Part shown: positions 4,634 through 36,479 of the stretch, piece after piece | How positions within the stretch are numbered: the stretch's first letter is position 1 | Layout: each line of letters starts with the position of its first letter | Source of the DNA: Blastocatellia bacterium | Lineage (GTDB): Bacteria; Acidobacteriota; Blastocatellia; HR10 | Assembly (NCBI GenBank): GCA_035573895.1 | Contig: DATLZR010000013.1 | Span: forward strand, 699 to 64,698 | Direction of reading: 5' to 3' | DNA length: 64,000 nt | Notes under the pieces: model-generated | Told to the model about the DNA's origin: nothing | What the model saw: the letters and a program-made list of their open reading frames with translations, nothing else | Database searches by the model: none | Made by a program: the position numbers and the translations under genes

Positions 4634-6238
4634 TCACGTCGTTTCATCCTTTGCCACGACGTCCACGATCTCTCCTTTGAACGTTTTCACGAGTGCCCTC
4701 ACCACCGGATCGGCTTCGGCTTTGGCTCGCAAGGCCGACGCTCGAGAGGACTGTTCCGACGGTGCATTCGCTTCGACCACGACATCGAGTGTGAGAGTGC
4801 GGCCCGTCACCGCCTGAGCGACGGCGGTGAGGACCTGAGCATTTGACTTCTGCAACACGGTCTCCCGGTGTCCGCTCTCGGTGCGAGCGAAGACGATGCG
4901 CAGGCGGTCTCCGGTGATCTCGATGGTTTGGGCTTTCTCCAGGATGGTTGCGAGCAGAATCTTCCCTCGCTCTATGAGCTGCTGCTTAATCGCCTCGATT
5001 TCATCGGTAGCTCCCGAAGGGGGGACTGCTGGTACGGTCGCCGGAGCAGGGCGGAGCGAGCCGGGAGCATCTCCGCTCACCGAGCCGGTGGAGATATGCT
5101 CCTGAAGGGCCTCGATTCGTCGAATGAGGTCGGCCAGCGGTCGGACCCGTTGCAGATGCGCCAGTTTGACCAGGCCGATTTCCAGTTGAAACCGCGGTTC
5201 GGTCGCCAGGCGGATCGCCTGCTCGACCTCGGCGAGGGCGTGGAAGAGCCGGACAATATCTTCTTCGCTGAAGCGATCGGCCTGGGCGAGGAGCAGGGCT
5301 CGCTCGGCGTCTTCGACCGGCAACAGCTCGGGATCCGGCCCCACCGTCTTCACTACCAGCAGATGACGGAAGTAGCTCATCAACTCGCGGGTGAAGGCGC
5401 GAAGGTCCACGCCTCGCGCCACCAGATCGTCCACCAGCCGGAGGATGCGCCCGCCATCCTGATCGGCAATCGCATCGGCGACGGCGGCGAGCATCTCGGC
5501 TCCCACCAATCCCAGGACTTCGATGACCTGCTCGTCGTGAATCTCTCGACCGGCAAAGCTGATCACCTGATCGAAGACCGATTGCGCATCGCGCATGCTC
5601 CCTTCGCCGGCGCGGGCGATGCGCCGAAGCGCCGCATCACTGATGGTGATGCCTTCGGCTTGAGCGATGCGCCGAAGCCGCTCGAAGATTTTCCCCTCGG
5701 CGATGAGCCGGAACTCGAACAACTGACAGCGCGAGATGATCGTCGGCGGAACCTTATGCAGTTCGGTCGTGGCCATGATGAAGAGCACATGGGGAGGAGG
5801 CTCTTCGAGCGTCTTGAGCAGGGCATTGAAAGCCGCCGAGGACAGTTGGTGAAATTCGTCTATGATGAAGATGCGGTAGCGATCGCGCGCCGGGCCGATG
5901 GCGAGGTTATTGATGATGACATCGCGCACATTATCCACACCCGTATGGGAAGCGGCATCAATCTCCAGGACATCGAGCGAGGTTCCCCGCGCGATCTCCT
6001 CGCACGAGGGGCACCGATTGCAGGGAGTCGTCGTCGGTCCGGTGGCGCAATTGAGGGCTTTGGCGAGGACGCGAGCGGTCGTCGTTTTTCCCACGCCGCG
6101 AGGGCCGGCAAAGATATAGGCATGATGCAGACGCCCACAGGAGATGGCGTTTTGCAACGTGCGGGCAATGGCCTCTTGCCCCACCAGTTCGTCAAAGGTT
6201 TGCGGGCGCCATTTCCGGGCAATGACCTGGTACGTCAT
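4634..6238 (-). CDS. dnaX: DNA polymerase III subunit gamma/tau.
   Basis: MTYQVIARKWRPQTFDELVGQEAI...GPRGVGKTTTARVLAKALNC (Walker A), zinc module CNRCPSC, IFIIDEFHQLS. ATG at 6236-6238. The ORF-track start at 6400 is an upstream TTG/GTG extension. Confidence 0.92.
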   Translation of the reverse strand: MTYQVIARKWRPQTFDELVGQEAIARTLQNAISCGRLHHAYIFAGPRGVGKTTTARVLAKALNCATGPTTTPCNRCPSCEEIARGTSLDVLEIDAASHTGVDNVRDVIINNLAIGPARDRYRIFIIDEFHQLSSAAFNALLKTLEEPPPHVLFIMATTELHKVPPTIISRCQLFEFRLIAEGKIFERLRRIAQAEGITISDAALRRIARAGEGSMRDAQSVFDQVISFAGREIHDEQVIEVLGLVGAEMLAAVADAIADQDGGRILRLVDDLVARGVDLRAFTRELMSYFRHLLVVKTVGPDPELLPVEDAERALLLAQADRFSEEDIVRLFHALAEVEQAIRLATEPRFQLEIGLVKLAHLQRVRPLADLIRRIEALQEHISTGSVSGDAPGSLRPAPATVPAVPPSGATDEIEAIKQQLIERGKILLATILEKAQTIEITGDRLRIVFARTESGHRETVLQKSNAQVLTAVAQAVTGRTLTLDVVVEANAPSEQSSRASALRAKAEADPVVRALVKTFKGEIVDVVAKDETT

Positions 6239-26000: not shown

Positions 26001-26270
26001 CGCGAGGAACTCCCATTCCTGTTTTACACGGTACGCAGGGTCTTTTATGACATCTTTCACATCGCGCTGACGAAAGAAGGAATAAACTCTCCACCAACGT
26101 CGTATTTGCCAGATACGAATACCCAATACATAACGCATTGCCCTGCGATAGATGCGCAAACGGGTGACTGCTTCAGAGGAATACCAACGGTATACGATCC
26201 AGCCAATCAGTGCTATTAAGAGCGCAGCAAGAAGCGCGGATATGACTTGAATTAAGATCTCTCGCCACAT
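23058..26270 (-). CDS. Large fusion protein of 1070 aa: N-terminal TM anchor, NB-ARC/STAND P-loop NTPase, TPR repeats, CARF domain, RelE/ParE-like C-terminus (Cami1-like).
   Basis: TM: MWREILIQVISALLAALLIALIGWIVY. NTPase: Walker A AEPPGRGKTCIAAKL, Walker B RLIVLDNY, LLLGRREP, and a GxP/GLPL-like HKCGGEPEAMKLAAF. TPR-like helical repeats (EAALAWLCLEQGRFDEAADF...). CARF signatures: MRTILTTVGTSLLSN and SVLINATGGFKAEIAYATLVGLLFDVPVYYIHEAF. RelE-like tail: ERVFFFEADDGSVRVCELARHSDQSYERL. Single uninterrupted ORF, directly downstream of cmr6. Confidence 0.75.
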   Translation of the reverse strand: MWREILIQVISALLAALLIALIGWIVYRWYSSEAVTRLRIYRRAMRYVLGIRIWQIRRWWRVYSFFRQRDVKDVIKDPAYRVKQEWEFLAQKARAMGVLDSPPSVSEFYKSVRLQMRDTKSLQNEAVIIAEQLRELEEPPPPTPEEFRTRPSPIGIFSPPPSPGKFIDKDRELEQLWQWLEDEEQKTLSIAEPPGRGKTCIAAKLCDEAQQSGKWKVYWVNCSARVTMESILKSFADEWAKEIAEDPVAADSDYYQQLTNASYLYESRLNALTRWLGQKQRLIVLDNYFLAHETLNQVVIAIDRSPGQTKLLLLGRREPSVLESTELPTGVHKFLRLDPLPQEFAREYLIVCEDALRETLSEEQALAIWHKCGGEPEAMKLAAFAARRRSVDELLHLDLPDWSSDMKRWLDELTEILTDSERDALRAACIFSEPHERALLEAVCTATAVTDTSNAINGLIDAHLLERDADDRLSLHDILRDYWRSRLGEEAKRLHARAAEWLEERRTQVKQTQISPDVGDWDENARRRWADYTRRAFNHWREAGEPAKALACAEDLWTVAEDLRLLCQQALDLCEQVGDDAARAVWLRREAALLYNEQKMDAAENRYRQSLELDRQAGNELGQAQTEAALAWLCLEQGRFDEAADFANHSRLLSQQVGDKVTHAAALHVMGLVEEVYSHFLDALTLLASARSLLQEVGTESDELQEDIKRVRRAISMRTILTTVGTSLLSNARRDLNEQQPDEYQLANYLRQTDAVKASAETNSLSRLLTEGDERIVFLCSQTVEGKQCAEALARHYENSGCETRVIEVPDLTYTESRFKMRGLRSLVATLIDQIRREKAQGRSVLINATGGFKAEIAYATLVGLLFDVPVYYIHEAFRDIIEMPPTPISWDYSLLASCEEFFEWINADLRPTPEVDARLRGLPEEVRLLLAEEEGFTLLSPAGEAFYEAYRDHVAQAKPEPIWLSAQAWDTYRAAAPDVRELFDRALKKLGLRELRISGSERVRNCDCLVYPRGHRDERVFFFEADDGSVRVCELARHSDQSYERLIARGVWRNKYQDFQPWREGSVHL

Positions 26271-26297
26271 ACCACGCTGCTACCTCCTTTAACCATC

Positions 26298-27335
26298 CTA
26301 TCCCTGCGTTGAGCTGAAAAAGCCATATCCTGCCGCTGTCTTGCTGCCAATGCCTAAGTTGCTTAGCGCCGTTCTCAACCATGCCTCAGCGGTTTGGCGT
26401 AGATGGCTGTCCCGAGACGCCAAGGCAAAGGCAAAGGGCGTGCGTTCGACAGTAAGGAAATACACGGGCACAGGGCTTAGGTAATCTGCAGGCGGAGTCG
26501 GCCTGCCCGTTTTATCTACCCTTTGCTGGTAATAGTCAGCATAGTGTGGATTCATGACGTCGAGTTTCATACGCGGCGCTTGCGCCGGGTAAGCGTCGAA
26601 GAAGATAACTTTACCTTGCCGCTTGGTTGTGCCGAAAACCGCATAGAAGTCACCCGCCAACGCATGCCATTGGTCGAGGTTAAGTGATTGCACAGCCGCT
26701 ACGTCGCGGCACAATTCGTCCCCCTGCAATTGCTCCAACGTTTCTGTCTGCTCCTTCACCGAACCTTCAGACAACAACTGGTTAAGCAATTGCAACGGCG
26801 TTTTGCGCTTCGCCTTCCCACGCCATTCTGCCTCATCGTCCGAAACGGAAGGCACGCCTAACTTTTCGGCAATCTCCCAAAATGCTTGTGCTCGTGTCAC
26901 CCCCTTTACCGCGCTGGCAGGAATGAAAGGTACGCCGTAGATGCGGTGCAGGGTGATGTTGGTCTCTAACACATGCCCTGACCCTAAACCGATAACGACA
27001 CGCCACTCCGGTTCTGCTGTGAACTGCACCACATCGGGCTCATACGACTTAAGCATCGCTTCCCAGCGACGGCTGCACGCGGTGAGGAGCTGATTTAGTC
27101 GTTGGAGGTTGAGCGGTGCGGCTTCACGCCTTTTAGACTGTTGACTCTGTTCCCACTGATTGCCCCGCCGTTCGTACAGAATAAAACGGTCAAGCCACAG
27201 GCCCAGGTTCTGGCATTTGCCGCCGTGTGTACGCACGATAGTCGTAGTGTCATTTGGCAGTGGAAATACGGCTACCGGTTGCGAAGGCTCTGGACGTCTG
27301 CGTCCCATTGGTTGTCGTGGTCTATCTTGGCGCAT
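26298..27335 (-). CDS. cmr6: Type III-B CRISPR RAMP protein Cmr6.
   Basis: GLGSGHVLETNITLHRIYGVPFIPASAVKGVTRA (RAMP G-rich, PxIPGSSxKG-like) and C-terminal G-rich loop GIGSKTAAGYGFF. Confidence 0.85.
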   Translation of the reverse strand: MRQDRPRQPMGRRRPEPSQPVAVFPLPNDTTTIVRTHGGKCQNLGLWLDRFILYERRGNQWEQSQQSKRREAAPLNLQRLNQLLTACSRRWEAMLKSYEPDVVQFTAEPEWRVVIGLGSGHVLETNITLHRIYGVPFIPASAVKGVTRAQAFWEIAEKLGVPSVSDDEAEWRGKAKRKTPLQLLNQLLSEGSVKEQTETLEQLQGDELCRDVAAVQSLNLDQWHALAGDFYAVFGTTKRQGKVIFFDAYPAQAPRMKLDVMNPHYADYYQQRVDKTGRPTPPADYLSPVPVYFLTVERTPFAFALASRDSHLRQTAEAWLRTALSNLGIGSKTAAGYGFFSSTQG

Positions 27336-27341
27336 GGCTCA

Positions 27342-27737
27342 TCATTCTCCTAACTCTGCTTCCGCAAACCGCTTCAGCCAATTGATGAAGGCTAAAGCCT
27401 CGGCAGTGGCGCGGCGGTAAGCATTACTGTCGTTATTCATCACCCACTGCAACAAGGGCTGGCTGCTGGTTGGGTCCACTTGGGGTCTGACCCAATTAGA
27501 CAGGTGCTCATAGAGCAACGCGTGTTCGTCAAGGGGATTGCCTTTCGTCTTGGCATTGAGGAACGCCAACGACTGTCCTAACCCGTTGGTCAGGATATAG
27601 GACGGCATCTTTTGGACAAGACTTTTGTATTTACTGCCAAACTCCTTGCCCTTCTTTTTCACTTCCTCAACACATCTCCACGCTTGTGCCGCTCGCTCTT
27701 GGTCTTTGGTTTGCTGAAGACTTGGCATGATGGTCAC
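27342..27737 (-). CDS. cmr5: Type III-B small subunit Cmr5 (Cas11 family).
   Basis: 131 aa, all-helical. Hallmark MPSYILTNGLGQSLAFLNAK. Confidence 0.75.
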   Translation of the reverse strand: MTIMPSLQQTKDQERAAQAWRCVEEVKKKGKEFGSKYKSLVQKMPSYILTNGLGQSLAFLNAKTKGNPLDEHALLYEHLSNWVRPQVDPTSSQPLLQWVMNNDSNAYRRATAEALAFINWLKRFAEAELGE

Positions 27738-27743
27738 CTCCCA

Positions 27744-27890
27744 TCACAGCTTAATGAATTCGTCTACCGTCAATCCCGCCTGGCGGATAATCGCCAGGGC
27801 CGCCACGCTATCAGGTTTGAGGGCGGGCAATCGGCCCACGCAACGTTTCCCACCTTAACTTCAACAACCTCAAATTCTGCTGCTTCATAG
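27744..27890 (-). pseudogene. HicA-like toxin remnant, frameshifted and N-terminally decayed.
   Basis: One frame after a TAA stop gives GGKRCVGRLPALKPDSVAALAIIRQAGLTVDEFIKL*, matching the HicA C-terminal consensus (KpGTLrsIlkQAGLsveEF). An upstream fragment RLLKLRWETLRGP sits in another frame. Overlaps the 3-prime end of the hicB-like ORF. Confidence 0.4.
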
Positions 27891-28072
27891 TTAGCAGGCA
27901 GCGGTTCGCCGTGCTTGCGAAGGCTGGCGATGTAGCCACTGATGGCATCTTTGATCATCGCCAGCGCTTCTTCCTTTGTTTCCCCTTGCGTCACGCAACC
28001 AGGGAGAGCCGGAGCCGAAACGATGTAACCACCCTCTTCGGCTGGTTCCAGATAAACAAGGAAACGAGCCAT
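27770..28072 (-). CDS. HicB-like (UPF0150) antitoxin-family protein embedded in the cmr operon.
   Basis: MARFLVYLEPAEEGGYIVSAPALPGCVTQGETKEEALAMIKDAISGYIASLRKHGEPLP matches the HicB N-terminal domain. ATG at 28070-28072. The C-terminal 25 aa are probably read-through into the decayed hicA. Confidence 0.7.
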   Translation of the reverse strand: MARFLVYLEPAEEGGYIVSAPALPGCVTQGETKEEALAMIKDAISGYIASLRKHGEPLPANYEAAEFEVVEVKVGNVAWADCPPSNLIAWRPWRLSARRD

Positions 28073-28087
28073 CACATTCACCTCCCA

Positions 28088-29038
28088 TCAAGGTTCTATT
28101 CGCAATTTAACAAGCCCTCTCCCCACCGTTTCATCACCACCCAACTGGACGCGATTCAGTCTCAAGTTTTTTAAAAAATCCAGTACTTCCTGCGCCGTGC
28201 CTTGCCATCCTTGTGGCAGTTTGCTCTTGTCTACGCGCGGCTTGGTGGCAAACAGCGGGGCGTAAAGCAACGTGTCAGTCGGCAGATGCTCCTCGCTCCA
28301 CAGTGCACCTTCCGCCACTGTTTTTGTTTCATTCTCCAAACGAATACGGTTGACGACTTCGGTGGAGAACTGCGTGAAGTCGCGGAAGGCGTTTTCCGGC
28401 AGGATAACGAGACTCTTTGGTAATTTCTTCCGCCAATAGTCATATTCGCTATCCGTCGGCAAAGCGTTGCTTGCCAGCCATTCCGCGATGGCTTTCACCT
28501 GCTGGTCTTCCTCCGCATCAAATGCGAACTCCTCCAGCACCACCTTGCCGTCGGCAGTGACATCGTTGCCAGGGGCCACAAGTGCTGTCTTCTCTGCTTC
28601 CTTCGGATCATGGGACTTATCTTCGGGTCCTATCGCTTGCCAGTTGAATGGTAGTCCGATTGTTTTCGCATCCCGGCAGAAACGAGCAAGAGCATCTTTG
28701 GAAGTTGTCCACGCAAACACGCCGATCAGCGAGCGCACGGGAAAGAGCAGCAAGCGAGCATCACCAGGGGAGAACGCGCCTGCGTGTTCGGAGGCTCGTT
28801 GGGTGTCCGGTCCGAAGACAATTTCAACTTTCTTTGTCCACTCTTGGTCACTGGTTTTGTTCGGATGGTCACTCGCTTCCGCCCGCAGTTTGCCCTTAAT
28901 GCCCGAGGCTTGCACCATCGGATAGTTGGTCACCCGCTCCCGCTGAACGGGCAGGTCCACGACACCAAGGGATGTGCCACTGCCGGCATGAAGCGGCGTC
29001 TCGACGTAAAGGTAGAGCATCGCTTTCGCTTCAAACAT
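28088..29038 (-). CDS. cmr4: Type III-B backbone RAMP Cmr4 (Cas7).
   Basis: MFEAKAMLYLYVETPLHAGSGTSLGVVDLPVQRERVTNYPMVQASGIKGKLRA. The catalytic Asp in VVDLPV is conserved. ATG at 29038 overlaps the cmr3 stop by 8 nt. Confidence 0.88.
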   Translation of the reverse strand: MFEAKAMLYLYVETPLHAGSGTSLGVVDLPVQRERVTNYPMVQASGIKGKLRAEASDHPNKTSDQEWTKKVEIVFGPDTQRASEHAGAFSPGDARLLLFPVRSLIGVFAWTTSKDALARFCRDAKTIGLPFNWQAIGPEDKSHDPKEAEKTALVAPGNDVTADGKVVLEEFAFDAEEDQQVKAIAEWLASNALPTDSEYDYWRKKLPKSLVILPENAFRDFTQFSTEVVNRIRLENETKTVAEGALWSEEHLPTDTLLYAPLFATKPRVDKSKLPQGWQGTAQEVLDFLKNLRLNRVQLGGDETVGRGLVKLRIEP

Positions 29039-30122
29039 AATCCCACCTCCCGATGAAAACTTGACCAAATCCAATTTGACTGAACCGTGCCTGTCCATCG
29101 TCATCTGTGATGACTTCAGGTACGGTCACCTCACCATCGCTCTCAAACAAGAACACACTGCCAGCAGGCACGAAACGGCGCATGGGTTTGTGTCGGTTTC
29201 GTGCCAGGTCAAAACCACCGATCGCTTGCGCGCGCGGTACAGCAGCAGCTACAAGTCGCACAGTGCCACCTGTGATAAATCGTCCCCAGTCATCAGGCTG
29301 CCAGCCAGTAGCAAAGTAGGCAGGTGTTGCAAAGTAAAGTTTGAATTTGCCTTGCACTACGCCGCCTGCCGTAAGGGGCGGTACCTCATCCACTTTCCGA
29401 TACACAGCCGCCTTTGAATCACCACCAAGTTGTAGGAGCCCCTCATCGCTTAATTGCACGCCGTTCACATCCAACCATAATCCTACGCCATGTTGAAGTC
29501 GCACGAACTCCACTTGAAACAAATGCCCACCTGCGCCGCCTCGATGCGGACGCTTAAACTGGCTATCAATGCCGACATGAAAGCGCGATTCGCGGTCGAA
29601 CAACTCATGCTCTGGGGTTACGCTGAACGGTTCCCCATTTAGGTAGTGCTGCAATTCGATTTCGCTCAACCAACCACTTGGGGCTTCGATGCGGGCTATC
29701 GTCCGATGCCAGAGCAAACCAAGCGAGTTCGCACCGACCGTCGGATTGCTCTCGAATGAGGACTCTGCTGCGAACAAGGGGGCAAGTGCGATAGGATGCG
29801 GACATCCTGCTAACACTACGTCAGAGGGGAGGGAGAAGTAACGCATAACCCGTCCATTCTCCTGCCGAGCTATGAACGGACCCCGCAGGCGCAACTGCCC
29901 GTAGTCATCGGCATAGCCAATTCCCGGCACAGACACAGCACCCGAGGCGTAGGCAGTATAGGACACTCCTTTGTCTGCTAGCACTCTTGAGCGGATCGCC
30001 CCTTGCATTGTGAGCGGCGTGGGCGGGAACAAGCTCAGAGCACGATGATCCTCACCAGCAACAAACGGGCGCCCATCGCGGAACAAGAGCACATCACTTG
30101 GCTCAATGAAAATACGCATCAC
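29031..30122 (-). CDS. cmr3: Type III-B Cmr3 (Cas5 group).
   Basis: MMRIFIEPSDVLLFRDGRPFVAGEDHRALSLFPPTPLTMQGAIRS, typical Cmr3 N-terminus. ATGA overlap with the cas10 stop. Confidence 0.85.
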   Translation of the reverse strand: MMRIFIEPSDVLLFRDGRPFVAGEDHRALSLFPPTPLTMQGAIRSRVLADKGVSYTAYASGAVSVPGIGYADDYGQLRLRGPFIARQENGRVMRYFSLPSDVVLAGCPHPIALAPLFAAESSFESNPTVGANSLGLLWHRTIARIEAPSGWLSEIELQHYLNGEPFSVTPEHELFDRESRFHVGIDSQFKRPHRGGAGGHLFQVEFVRLQHGVGLWLDVNGVQLSDEGLLQLGGDSKAAVYRKVDEVPPLTAGGVVQGKFKLYFATPAYFATGWQPDDWGRFITGGTVRLVAAAVPRAQAIGGFDLARNRHKPMRRFVPAGSVFLFESDGEVTVPEVITDDDGQARFSQIGFGQVFIGRWDYV

Positions 30123-34770: not shown

Positions 34771-35640
34771 CTAAGAGCCCATACGAAAACCCCTCATCAA
34801 GGCGTGATGACGAGACGATATCAGAACGCAGGCCAAATGAATCATCGCTCCATAATGCGCCAACTCCCGCTTCCATCGCACCAACACGCGACGGAACTGG
34901 TTTGCCCGGGCATGAGTTCGCTCCACCACCCGGCGAGAAGCCGGATGCTTCTTGTTCTTCTTCGTGCGGATCGCCAAGTCATCCTCGTGGCCTTGCTTCA
35001 GGTGCAAAACAAGAATCGCGCTCCAAGACGCCTTCGGCGAGATCTCATAATCGTAGCCTTTGTCTAAGCTCAGATGATGCAAGCGATAGACGACTTTTTC
35101 TTCTGGTCGCGGGACGATAAGGCCAACGACCGTCTCCACAGCGACGATTTTATCATGGGTGTTAGCGATGGTCCTCATCACCGACAAGAGTGCACCTCAG
35201 CGATCAGTCAACATACTCCGTTTGGTCCCGCATTTGCCTCGATCTACAGGACCCGGCCTTGTCCCCTCACTGCCTAGCGGGGCCTTGGTGATGACCCCAT
35301 CGAGCGCCTGCCATTTCCAGGAGAACCACAGTTGCCCATCGTAATATCGCAACAACACTTTTCCAGCCTGAGCAAACACCCTCGCGTGGAACCATTAGGG
35401 TTATCCTCCGTGCACCACCGAGTCTAACGCCCGCTCCTGACGTGCAATCGCCTGCCTTGGACAGCCGGTTCGCTGCATATAGATGATTTCGTCACAGATC
35501 CGGTGAAACGGCGTCGCGCGCCGCCCCGGTCTCCCTCGGTTCTTTCTCCCATTCCCAAATCGGCGCAATTAGATCATCGGACACATGCCGTAGCGAGTCC
35601 CTGACGGTCTTGGTCGCCATATCCTCCGTTGATAAGTTAA
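34771..35640 (-). mobile_element. IS5-family (IS427/IS1031-like) insertion sequence remnant. The transposase is split by frameshifts.
   Basis: ORF 34771..35187: ...LDKGYDYEI...PASRRVVERTHARANQFRRVLVRWKRELAHYGAMIHLACVLI (IS5 C-terminal DDE region). ORF 35197..35379: LLRYYDGQLWFSWKWQALDGVITKAPLGSEGTRPGPVDRGKCGTKRS. Upstream fragments MATKTVRDSLRHVSDD... and GRPGRRATPFHRICDEIIYMQRTGCPRQAIA match the orfA N-terminus. Terminal inverted repeats not identified. Confidence 0.6.
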
Positions 35641-35670: not shown

Positions 35671-35859
35671 TTATTGTATGGTCGGGCTTTCGTACAGATT
35701 CCTAATAATCCTGGGATGTCGCTTCAGGACGTGATCGCCCCCTTCTCGAATGAATTTGCTCATGTGCACGCGGGTTTTCGCCGAAAGCCGGTTCAGTTGC
35801 TCCTTCTGCTCAGGATTCAGGCAAATCGTGGTGATCACATTTTTGCCTGATCTGGCCAT
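35671..35859 (-). CDS. Ribbon-helix-helix (CopG/antitoxin-like) DNA-binding protein.
   Basis: MARSGKNVITTICLNPEQKEQLNRLSAKTRVHMSKFIREGGDHVL: beta-strand, then helix-turn-helix RHH pattern. ATG at 35859. Adjacent to the IS remnant. Confidence 0.6.
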   Translation of the reverse strand: MARSGKNVITTICLNPEQKEQLNRLSAKTRVHMSKFIREGGDHVLKRHPRIIRNLYESPTIQ

Positions 35860-36479
35860 AAGGCCCTCCGACTCTCTCGTCGCTACTATATATTTTGTCC
35901 ACAACGATGTCAATTGAAATTAACACCGAAAGTTGTCCCAAAAAGGAGGCGCCCTGTAATACCGGCTTGTCTTTTCAGTCGTCGCAGAGTGGATCCTTTG
36001 TCAAGAGGTGACCACCACGGGCTTAAGACTAGATTAGGACCATAGAAAACAGGACGTCGCAAAGCCTCCCAGCACCGCTTAACGCCTGCACGTTCTCTGG
36101 CTCCTCGGACGCGGATACGCCCAAACCCAAGTCGCCCACACGCTGGGGGGTTTACTTACACACCGTCCAGAGGTGGGTTGGGTGGTACGCCAGGGCGGGT
36201 TGTCCCACCTGCTCGAGCGCACGTGTGGCGGGGCAGGACGTCAAGCCAGGAATCTGACCCTGAAGCACCAGTCGGTCGTGCGGGACATGGTTTTCGGCCG
36301 CGGGGAGAAGCAAGGCAATGGATCCAGGAGCACATTGGGGGGTATTGAAAACCTGGTGCGACTATGACTTGAGAAACTCAAGCTGCGACGCAAGGTAGCT
36401 CGTCCGCAAGCGGTACGCGCCCAGGTGCGGGAGGCAAAAAAGGGCTTGGCGAGGCATCAGCGAAGGCGGGGGTTGAGGA

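Follow-up and report, generated by a model that had tools for sequence, protein, structure and literature searches.

A type III-B CRISPR operon from a Blastocatellia bacterium carries, between its genes cmr4 and cmr5, a small gene for a HicB-like antitoxin, followed by the remains of a gene for the toxin HicA. We report an analysis of this locus, which occupies the minus strand of contig DATLZR010000013.1 (assembly GCA_035573895.1) within a stretch of 64,000 nucleotides (nt), referred to here as the window. HicA proteins are small, ribosome-independent, mRNA-cleaving toxins with a catalytic histidine and a fold like that of the double-stranded-RNA-binding domain, and the N-terminal domain of HicB attaches to HicA and occludes its active site. 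The original prediction for this DNA, that a HicB-like antitoxin and a decayed hicA stand between cmr4 and cmr5, is borne out by a Pfam match of 39.6 bits to PF15919 and by a hicA remnant at 27839..27744.

The genes at the locus are tightly packed. Upstream lies cmr4 (29038..28088), which encodes 316 residues ending in VGRGLVKLRIEP and is recognised by its match to the Pfam RAMPs family (80.5 bits) and by homologues named Cmr4; it is called at the same length in an independent assembly (L129). Its TGA stop, at 28090-28088, forms the initial three bases of the first copy (28090-28078) of a perfect 13-nt direct repeat, TGATGGGAGGTGA, which thus holds both the cmr4 stop and the Shine-Dalgarno sequence for hicB: the stop is followed by GGGAGGTGA, 5 nt and then the hicB ATG, which begins 15 nt past the stop. 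The hicB open reading frame (ORF) runs from this ATG for 100 codons (28072..27770). Codons 1-78 (28072..27839) are the counterpart of the 78-residue HicB relatives, codon 79 is a TGG for tryptophan (27838-27836) where DNA alignments place the TGA stop of those relatives, and residues 80-100 with the present stop (27835..27770) are the hicA remnant translated in a different frame. The remnant itself comprises 96 nt, a GTG, 30 further codons and a TGA, and its start overlaps the end of hicB just as in the relatives. The remnant's stop opens the second copy of the repeat (27746-27734), which also carries the Shine-Dalgarno sequence of cmr5; the same GGGAGGTGA follows the stop, then 6 nt (CCATC) and the cmr5 ATG at 27728. 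The 128-residue product of cmr5 (27728..27342) matches PF09701 with 136.8 bits and is 100% identical to a protein named Cmr5 by NCBI. The two copies of the 13-mer are identical and are the sole such pair in the 64 kilobases (kb), and the 9-mer occurs just three times on the minus strand of the window; the repeat may have arisen by duplication, or it may be a stretch of microhomology that served in recombination. No sigma-70-like promoter was found within 26200-29200, nor any convincing terminator or Rfam family in the cassette region.

Profile and structure searches both place the 100-residue product in the HicB family, as the original prediction had proposed. The match to PF15919 (HicB_lk_antitox) lies above the cut-off of 27 (E=6.9e-10), that to PF21748 (23.5 bits) under its cut-off of 27.3, and a PDB sequence search returns the solved HicB chains 6U0I and 6HPB with E ~2e-6. 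A database copy is 100% identical, carries the NCBI name HicB family antitoxin and derives from a Blastocatellia metagenome-assembled genome (MAG). The protein starts with MARF at the ATG at 28072, a start common to all homologues; the GTG at 28081, earlier taken as the start, merely adds MNV. With 70 homologues as input, AlphaFold gives a model that shows the beta-beta-beta-alpha-beta core of HicB, with strands at residues 5-10, 16-19 and 27-30, a helix at 33-54 and a fourth strand at 71-74. The block-mean predicted local distance difference test (pLDDT) score is ~61-82 for residues 1-60 and below 50 from residue 60 on, except at residue 84, so that the fourth strand falls in the low-scoring region. 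When the model is compared with the PDB by Foldseek, each of the best 18 matches is either HicB or a HicB-like protein of Thermus, although the E-values are modest (from 1.5e-3).

The PF15919 match spans only profile positions 1-60 of 123, and neither Pfam nor PDB sequence searches find a C-terminal DNA-binding domain, ribbon-helix-helix (RHH) or helix-turn-helix (HTH), in the ORF. By its domain content this is a short-form HicB, as is true of the whole subclade, and since it amounts to the N-terminal domain of about 75 residues without an RHH or HTH, autoregulation is not expected. A single A-to-G change, overlooked in the original prediction, has turned the hicB stop from TGA to TGG and the overlap with hicA from GTGA to GTGG; with its stop gone, HicB continues for 22 residues that are read from the hicA remnant, but not in the hicA frame. 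The tail so formed has no counterpart in any homologue, and its pLDDT is below 50.

The hicA remnant reads VGRLPALKPDSVAALAIIRQAGLTVDEFIKL and a stop in one open frame. Its 31 codons, from the GTG at 27839 to the TGA at 27746-27744, join the two ends of the gene as VGRLPALKPDSV and AALAIIRQAGLTVDEFIKL. Alignment with intact hicA genes equates codons 1-12 with HicA residues 1-12 and codons 13-31 with residues 55-73, which defines an in-frame deletion of 126 nt (42 codons, residues 13-54) with its junction at about 27804/27803; of the 222 nt of the toxin gene, 126 are missing and 96 are left. The decayed hicA that had been predicted is real, but it is more than a C-terminal stub, because the N-terminal 12 and C-terminal 19 codons survive together in frame, and the N-terminal half, thought to be missing or out of frame, has instead suffered an internal in-frame deletion. 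The peptide MKQQNLRLLKLRWETL, considered in another frame as the HicA N-terminus, was the wrong candidate, as the true N-terminus shares the frame of the C-terminus. The deleted segment carries the three beta-strands and the motif G28-S29-H30. Histidine 30 of the intact homologue aligns with an alanine in the Burkholderia pseudomallei HicA chains 6G26_E and 4C26, which are H24A active-site mutants. With the Gly-Ser-His motif removed by the 126-nt deletion, no toxin can be made.

When an intact HicA was compared with the whole window by tblastn, the final 16 residues were 87.5% identical (E=1.5e-5). Pfam and NCBIfam gave no match to the remnant even at E<=10, and Pfam found nothing in the hicA fragments, whether singly or concatenated. 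As judged from the homology of its remains and from synteny, the stretch is a hicA pseudogene, and the locus in the window, its toxin gene being not intact, is no functional type II toxin-antitoxin (TA) module.

The window comes from a metagenome-assembled genome, and one could suppose that a sequencing or assembly artefact has made a functional hicBA pair look broken in hicA alone. All three frames were read, however, and the 126 nt are absent rather than shifted, so that no frameshift correction can restore the gene; the full-length hicA that might have emerged after error correction is not there, and rebuilding it from the three frames of 27744-27900 fails as only 96 of the 222 nt exist. 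A separate Logan assembly of run ERR14841024, a run possibly shared with the window's MAG, agrees with the window at every position over 4303 nt, and 4 contigs are on record with precisely this 100-residue read-through HicB. An artefact is thereby effectively refuted, and we give it next to no credence.

The ancestral arrangement can be read from the relatives. Our search returned 927 HicB homologues in total, of which the nearest, at 84-95% identity, are 76-78 residues long and end where the window protein continues. Each is then followed by a 73-residue HicA whose start overlaps the hicB stop by 4 nt (ATGA or GTGA). Three distinct contigs, L017, L018 and L019, hold an intact cmr4-hicB-hicA-cmr5-cmr6 order. 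L017 and L018 are two European Nucleotide Archive metagenomes with HicB 91-95% identical to that of the window, and L019 is identical to the Joint Genome Institute (JGI) contig L064; the intact HicA partner in L019 matches PF07927 with 64.6 bits. Their Cmr4 is 60% and their Cmr5 51-53% identical to those of the window. L019 (QMYR01000114.1) is labelled Candidatus Thorarchaeota, its hicBA shares 91% identity with the Blastocatellia copy, and it is 100% identical to the JGI contig over 1882 nt; either its archaeal bin assignment looks doubtful or the locus looks transferred. Recent horizontal spread as the source of the high HicB identity was considered and ruled out, as the synonymous divergence (dS) reaches about 1 or more with every relative, and the identity therefore reflects constraint. 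Among known phages and plasmids the best matches to the cassette reach no more than 46% identity in IMG/VR and 63% in Sulfobacillus plasmids.

The nearest relatives of the operon itself present a different picture. They were fetched both through Cmr5 (L008, L009/10/11, L012/13 and L014/15/16) and through Cmr4 (L141, L142/143, L144/145 and L146/147), and they reduce to eight distinct loci, L008, L009, L012, L014, L141, L142, L144 and L146. In all eight, cmr4 and cmr5 overlap or stand at most 15 nt apart, with no insert. Furthermore, the 15 nt ahead of the cmr5 ATG in the window, TGGGAGGTGACCATC, nearly equal the native cmr4-cmr5 spacer of insert-free L142, CAGGAGGTGACCACC. Since the nearest relatives are insert-free and the right junction resembles that spacer, the cassette is a lineage-specific insertion. 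The proposal that a TA cassette entered the operon and then lost its toxin is in this way upheld from two sides, by intact pairs at the same position in L017, L018 and L019 and by nearest operons that lack any insert.

These comparisons also bear on the history of the operon. The window's Cas10 and Cmr3 are 79-80% identical to those of L146, but 46% and 55% identical, respectively, to those of L141-L144; Cmr1 is 74-80% identical to its counterparts in L142, L144 and L146, and Cmr4 71-80% to those in L141, L142, L144 and L146. Cmr6 and the effector encoded downstream of it are 81% and 73% identical to those of L009, but at most 59% and 38% identical to those of the L141-L146 loci. Such a patchwork, which switches several times along the III-B operon, indicates module shuffling between related Cmr loci. 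The resemblance of Cas10 to one group of loci, and of Cmr5 and Cmr6 to another, had suggested the cassette as the precise seam of a chimeric operon; this idea was dropped once the Cmr4 search gave closer relatives. What had seemed a 'B-like' Cmr4 tail is better read as an ancestral state found also in L033, and a switch between cmr4 and cmr6 is possible without being attributable specifically to the cassette.

Taken together, we favour, with a probability of roughly three in four, the reading that a promoter-less type II hicBA cassette, antitoxin first, inserted between cmr4 and cmr5 of this III-B operon and is now decaying. The cassette would have entered the 12-15-nt spacer between the two genes, and the deletion of HicA residues 13-54 took the three beta-strands and the Gly-Ser-His motif. 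The hicB gene would still be carried along passively in cmr transcription and be translated by means of a strong Shine-Dalgarno sequence of its own, and the second copy of the stop-plus-Shine-Dalgarno 13-mer would preserve the translation of cmr5. With nothing to neutralise at the locus, the orphan HicB most likely has no role in CRISPR interference. Its persistence may be explained by toxin-first loss being the sole viable order of decay, and it is perhaps kept for neutralising HicA paralogues elsewhere in the genome.

By accepted logic a TA pair can lose only its toxin first, and the relatives agree with this. In 83 distinct loci hicB is open and the sequence beyond it long enough to judge its partner; hicA is full-length in 56 of these loci and partial or missing in 27, some of the latter being single frameshifts that are possibly sequencing errors; a disrupted hicB occurs in just 5 loci. 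Independent in-frame internal deletions beside an intact hicB are found in L072 (511-642), where HicA residues 4-33 are lost and MSR is joined to RHPGG..., and in L021 (8228-8320), where residues 21-64 are lost, ...KLQRAG is joined to LTVD... and an internal stop is present too; the L021 deletion falls between the two (R/Q)AG motifs, and Gly-Ser-His is gone in both loci. L094 has only the last HicA helix left, L045 and L070 hold no trace of hicA beside an intact hicB, and the toxin is eroded in L080 and L114 as well. Toxin-first decay is, on these counts, the norm of the clade regardless of context. Orphan antitoxins from degrading TA pairs are well documented, with many in surveys (PMC7192599). 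In L114 both genes of the pair are decaying (5859-6236), hicB having a corrupted N-terminus (…HGPFLRLSRTRRGRGYIVS…) and hicA being cut to about 12 codons; the pair lies about 0.6 kb downstream of a 429-residue ORF (ending at 5432, the last after the Cmr genes) and directly before a 290-residue ORF.

Several observations weigh against the decaying-insertion reading. The search for further hicA copies was confined to 64 kb of the genome. From its GTG start, with AAGGTGG upstream, the remnant still reads open for 31 codons, and a short peptide made from it is possible. The ratio of non-synonymous to synonymous divergence (dN/dS) of hicB against its relatives is 0.02-0.08 with a saturated dS of about 1 or more, and hicB has no signs of decay besides the loss of its stop, all residues that are invariant in alignments including the window sequence being kept. 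Replacements specific to the window are more frequent in the HicA remnant (6/30) than in HicB (4/74; Fisher p=0.03), which counts for the decay reading, but three of the six lie at the deletion junction and without them p=0.38. Finally, the close HicB subclade is strongly tied to type III loci: where HicB is at least 84% identical to that of the window, a type III gene is present in the fetched DNA of 9 of the 14 distinct loci, duplicates having been removed and the count being a lower bound from phmmer with a limited set of Cas queries. This tie leaves room for a functional connection.

The conservation of hicB invites the explanation that selection keeps the orphan as an anti-addiction or immunity factor against HicA encoded elsewhere in the genome or on incoming mobile elements, riding on constitutive cmr expression. 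A fully conserved core with low dN/dS would fit, as would L045 and L070, whose intact hicB without any trace of hicA implies that a solo hicB can outlast its partner, and an anti-addiction role of orphan antitoxins has been discussed (PMC7192599). Yet a dS of about 1 or more means that the dN/dS comparison covers mostly the time before the deletion, the conservation may simply mean that the deletion is recent, and the lost stop and the tail suggest that the C-terminus is unpoliced; nor does the 64-kb window hold any other copy of hicA or hicB. The gene may be maintained by selection or may be merely young as an orphan. Overall we consider the anti-addiction role unlikely, while noting that it overlaps in part with the decaying insertion, as it would explain the persistence of hicB and not the nature of the locus.

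The orphan antitoxins of Klebsiella pneumoniae (PMC7192599) offer a close parallel: there too an intact antitoxin stands beside a toxin remnant, consistent with toxin-first decay, and the anti-addiction idea fits both cases. They differ in that the pair described here lies inside a CRISPR effector operon and its remnant keeps both gene ends in frame. The canonical HicAB systems of Escherichia coli (6HPB), B. pseudomallei (6G26) and Yersinia pestis (HicA3B3, 4P78) share the HicB N-domain fold and sequence family, and the partner in our relatives is likewise a PF07927 HicA with Gly-Ser-His encoded by a gene overlapping hicB by 4 nt. Unlike them, the window HicB lacks the C-terminal RHH or HTH, its gene comes first and without a promoter of its own, and its toxin is deleted. 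In size the cassette resembles more the Thermus thermophilus proteins, the HicB-like TTHA0281 (2DSY) and TTHA1013 (1WV8), of about 70-80 residues, and the HicA-like TTHA1913 (1WHZ), of about 70. Both of the former are among the fold matches of the window HicB, and for the intact partner HicA, 1WHZ far outranks every other PDB match (E=3.6e-15). To our knowledge these short Thermus proteins do not occur in cas operons, and the copy in the window is further set apart from them by its read-through tail and its missing partner.

Another reading would be that HicB or the whole cassette has been co-opted, either as an accessory of the type III-B system in the manner of Cas13a and HicAB or as an addiction device that punishes the loss of cmr transcription. 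The promoter-less cassette is indeed tightly embedded in the operon, and close copies of hicBA in type III loci (the 9 of 14 above) stand not only after cmr4 but also after cmr6 (L033 and L065), after a gene for a Cas_APE2256 CARF protein (L001-3 and L034) and ahead of csx3 (L004, L077 and L080). This same variety of position speaks against co-option, and the linkage almost vanishes with distance in the family, to 5 of 42 distinct loci at 75-84% HicB identity and 1 of 37 below 75%, counts that are likewise lower bounds. Consistent presence across related type III modules is not found, the cassette being in none of the eight nearest operon relatives, and the toxin has decayed here as well as in L072, L080 and L114, CRISPR-linked copies included. 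The linkage to type III loci is real at the level of the cassette, and not for this operon.

Precedents for a functional tie exist in other CRISPR types. In the Cas13a-HicAB 'CCTA' system (PMC13448076), of type VI and laid out as hicA-array-hicB-cas13a, an RHH-bearing HicB is bound and activated by Cas13a, and the likeness extends to a HicAB family genomically tied to RNA-targeting CRISPR and to an orphan hicB beside cas genes. The operon in the window is of type III, no cas13 or CRISPR array lies in the 64 kb, and the 78-residue HicB has neither the RHH of the Cas13a-associated protein nor any other DNA-binding domain. CreTA (PMC10097628, PMC9458426), an RNA toxin-antitoxin of type I systems that safeguards cas genes and is repressed by Cascade via a guide resembling CRISPR RNA (crRNA), shows, as the Cas13a system does, that functional ties between TA modules and CRISPR are possible; the likeness is conceptual, in that a TA pair placed within a cas locus could exact a price when that locus is lost, and there is no homology with hicBA. 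For type III modules, the sections of the survey by Shah et al. cited here (PMC6546367) describe TA pairs as bordering, and generally enriched near, the modules, as passengers of the mobilome or possible stabilisers, and score no TA family as an accessory gene; a recurrent placement between cmr4 and cmr5 like the one seen here does not figure in them. The antitoxin-like regulator co-opted by Cmr that was offered as one option in the original prediction finds no positive evidence, given the absence of a DNA-binding domain, the eight empty nearest operons and the commonness of toxin erosion, and we judge co-option of either kind very unlikely.

The position itself is a more general matter. At the cmr4-cmr5 junction of L034 (=L074; 4483-5054) and of L114 (1961-2582) a different TA cassette is found, with a UPF0175 antitoxin scoring 60.2 and 63.2 bits, respectively. 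The short ORFs that follow look like a broken PIN/DUF3368 toxin: those behind UPF0175 in L114 have weak PIN and DUF3368 matches (E ~0.01-0.02), and the 49-residue ORF in L034, checked as a PIN toxin, has no Pfam match. The Cmr4 tails of these sister loci are closely related, with 81-88% identity among them. In each of the four distinct 'A-type' III-B loci examined, some TA cassette occupies the junction, which counts for co-option, and the recurrence comes from HicB-anchored searches. The idea that the hicBA subclade, together with the UPF0175-PIN cassette found in its place in sister loci, is a selected companion of type III-B rather than debris strikes us as distinctly improbable. If true, placement between cmr4 and cmr5 would make toxin control depend on continued transcription of the effector operon, as a protein-based analogue of CreTA addiction, or alternatively HicB or HicA may interact with the Cmr complex or with RNA products of the complex, much as Cas13a and HicB interact; the window would then hold a disarmed copy of such a device.

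In the rest of the operon, all on the minus strand, cmr1 (34182-33049), cas10/cmr2 (33052-30119) and cmr3 (30122-29031) precede cmr4, and cmr6 (27335-26298) follows cmr5. The cmr operon looks intact, with the cassette as a passenger. No CRISPR array was detected in the window by TRF and an exact 18-mer spacing scan, so the operon would need crRNAs from elsewhere. Beyond cmr6 lies the gene for a 1070-residue effector (26270-23058) that combines an NB-ARC/STAND NTPase, TPR and Cas_APE2256 CARF domains and is found also in L009, L010 and L012; the RelE-like end that had been ascribed to this CARF protein was not detected in its last 180 residues by Pfam, NCBIfam or PDB sequence search. Another protein, of about 430-440 residues, recurs after cmr6 or hicBA in other loci (L001 6589-7917, L019 6914-8036, L047 5044-6258 and L114 4143-5432) and is, on weak Csa3_N/CARF-like Pfam matches only (E=4e-4), probably a divergent CARF effector. 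Upstream of cmr1, also on the minus strand, stand a sub-threshold fragment of a DDE transposase (34771-35187; PF13359, E=0.004) and a gene for an 80-residue ribbon-helix-helix protein (35671-35913; PF12651, 34.4 bits), which may be debris of a mobile element or TA system beside the operon.

For this genome the finding is of little consequence, as the cassette is ordinary genomic debris in a slightly unusual place; in annotation, hicB should be labelled an orphan that has a read-through tail, and the stretch of 96 nt a hicA pseudogene. More widely, one tightly conserved hicBA subclade lives mostly inside type III CRISPR loci, two unrelated TA families have supplied cassettes at the cmr4-cmr5 junction of several related III-B operons, and the toxin halves are eroded time and again. 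This type III habit and the recurrent use of the junction are the sole parts that merit follow-up.

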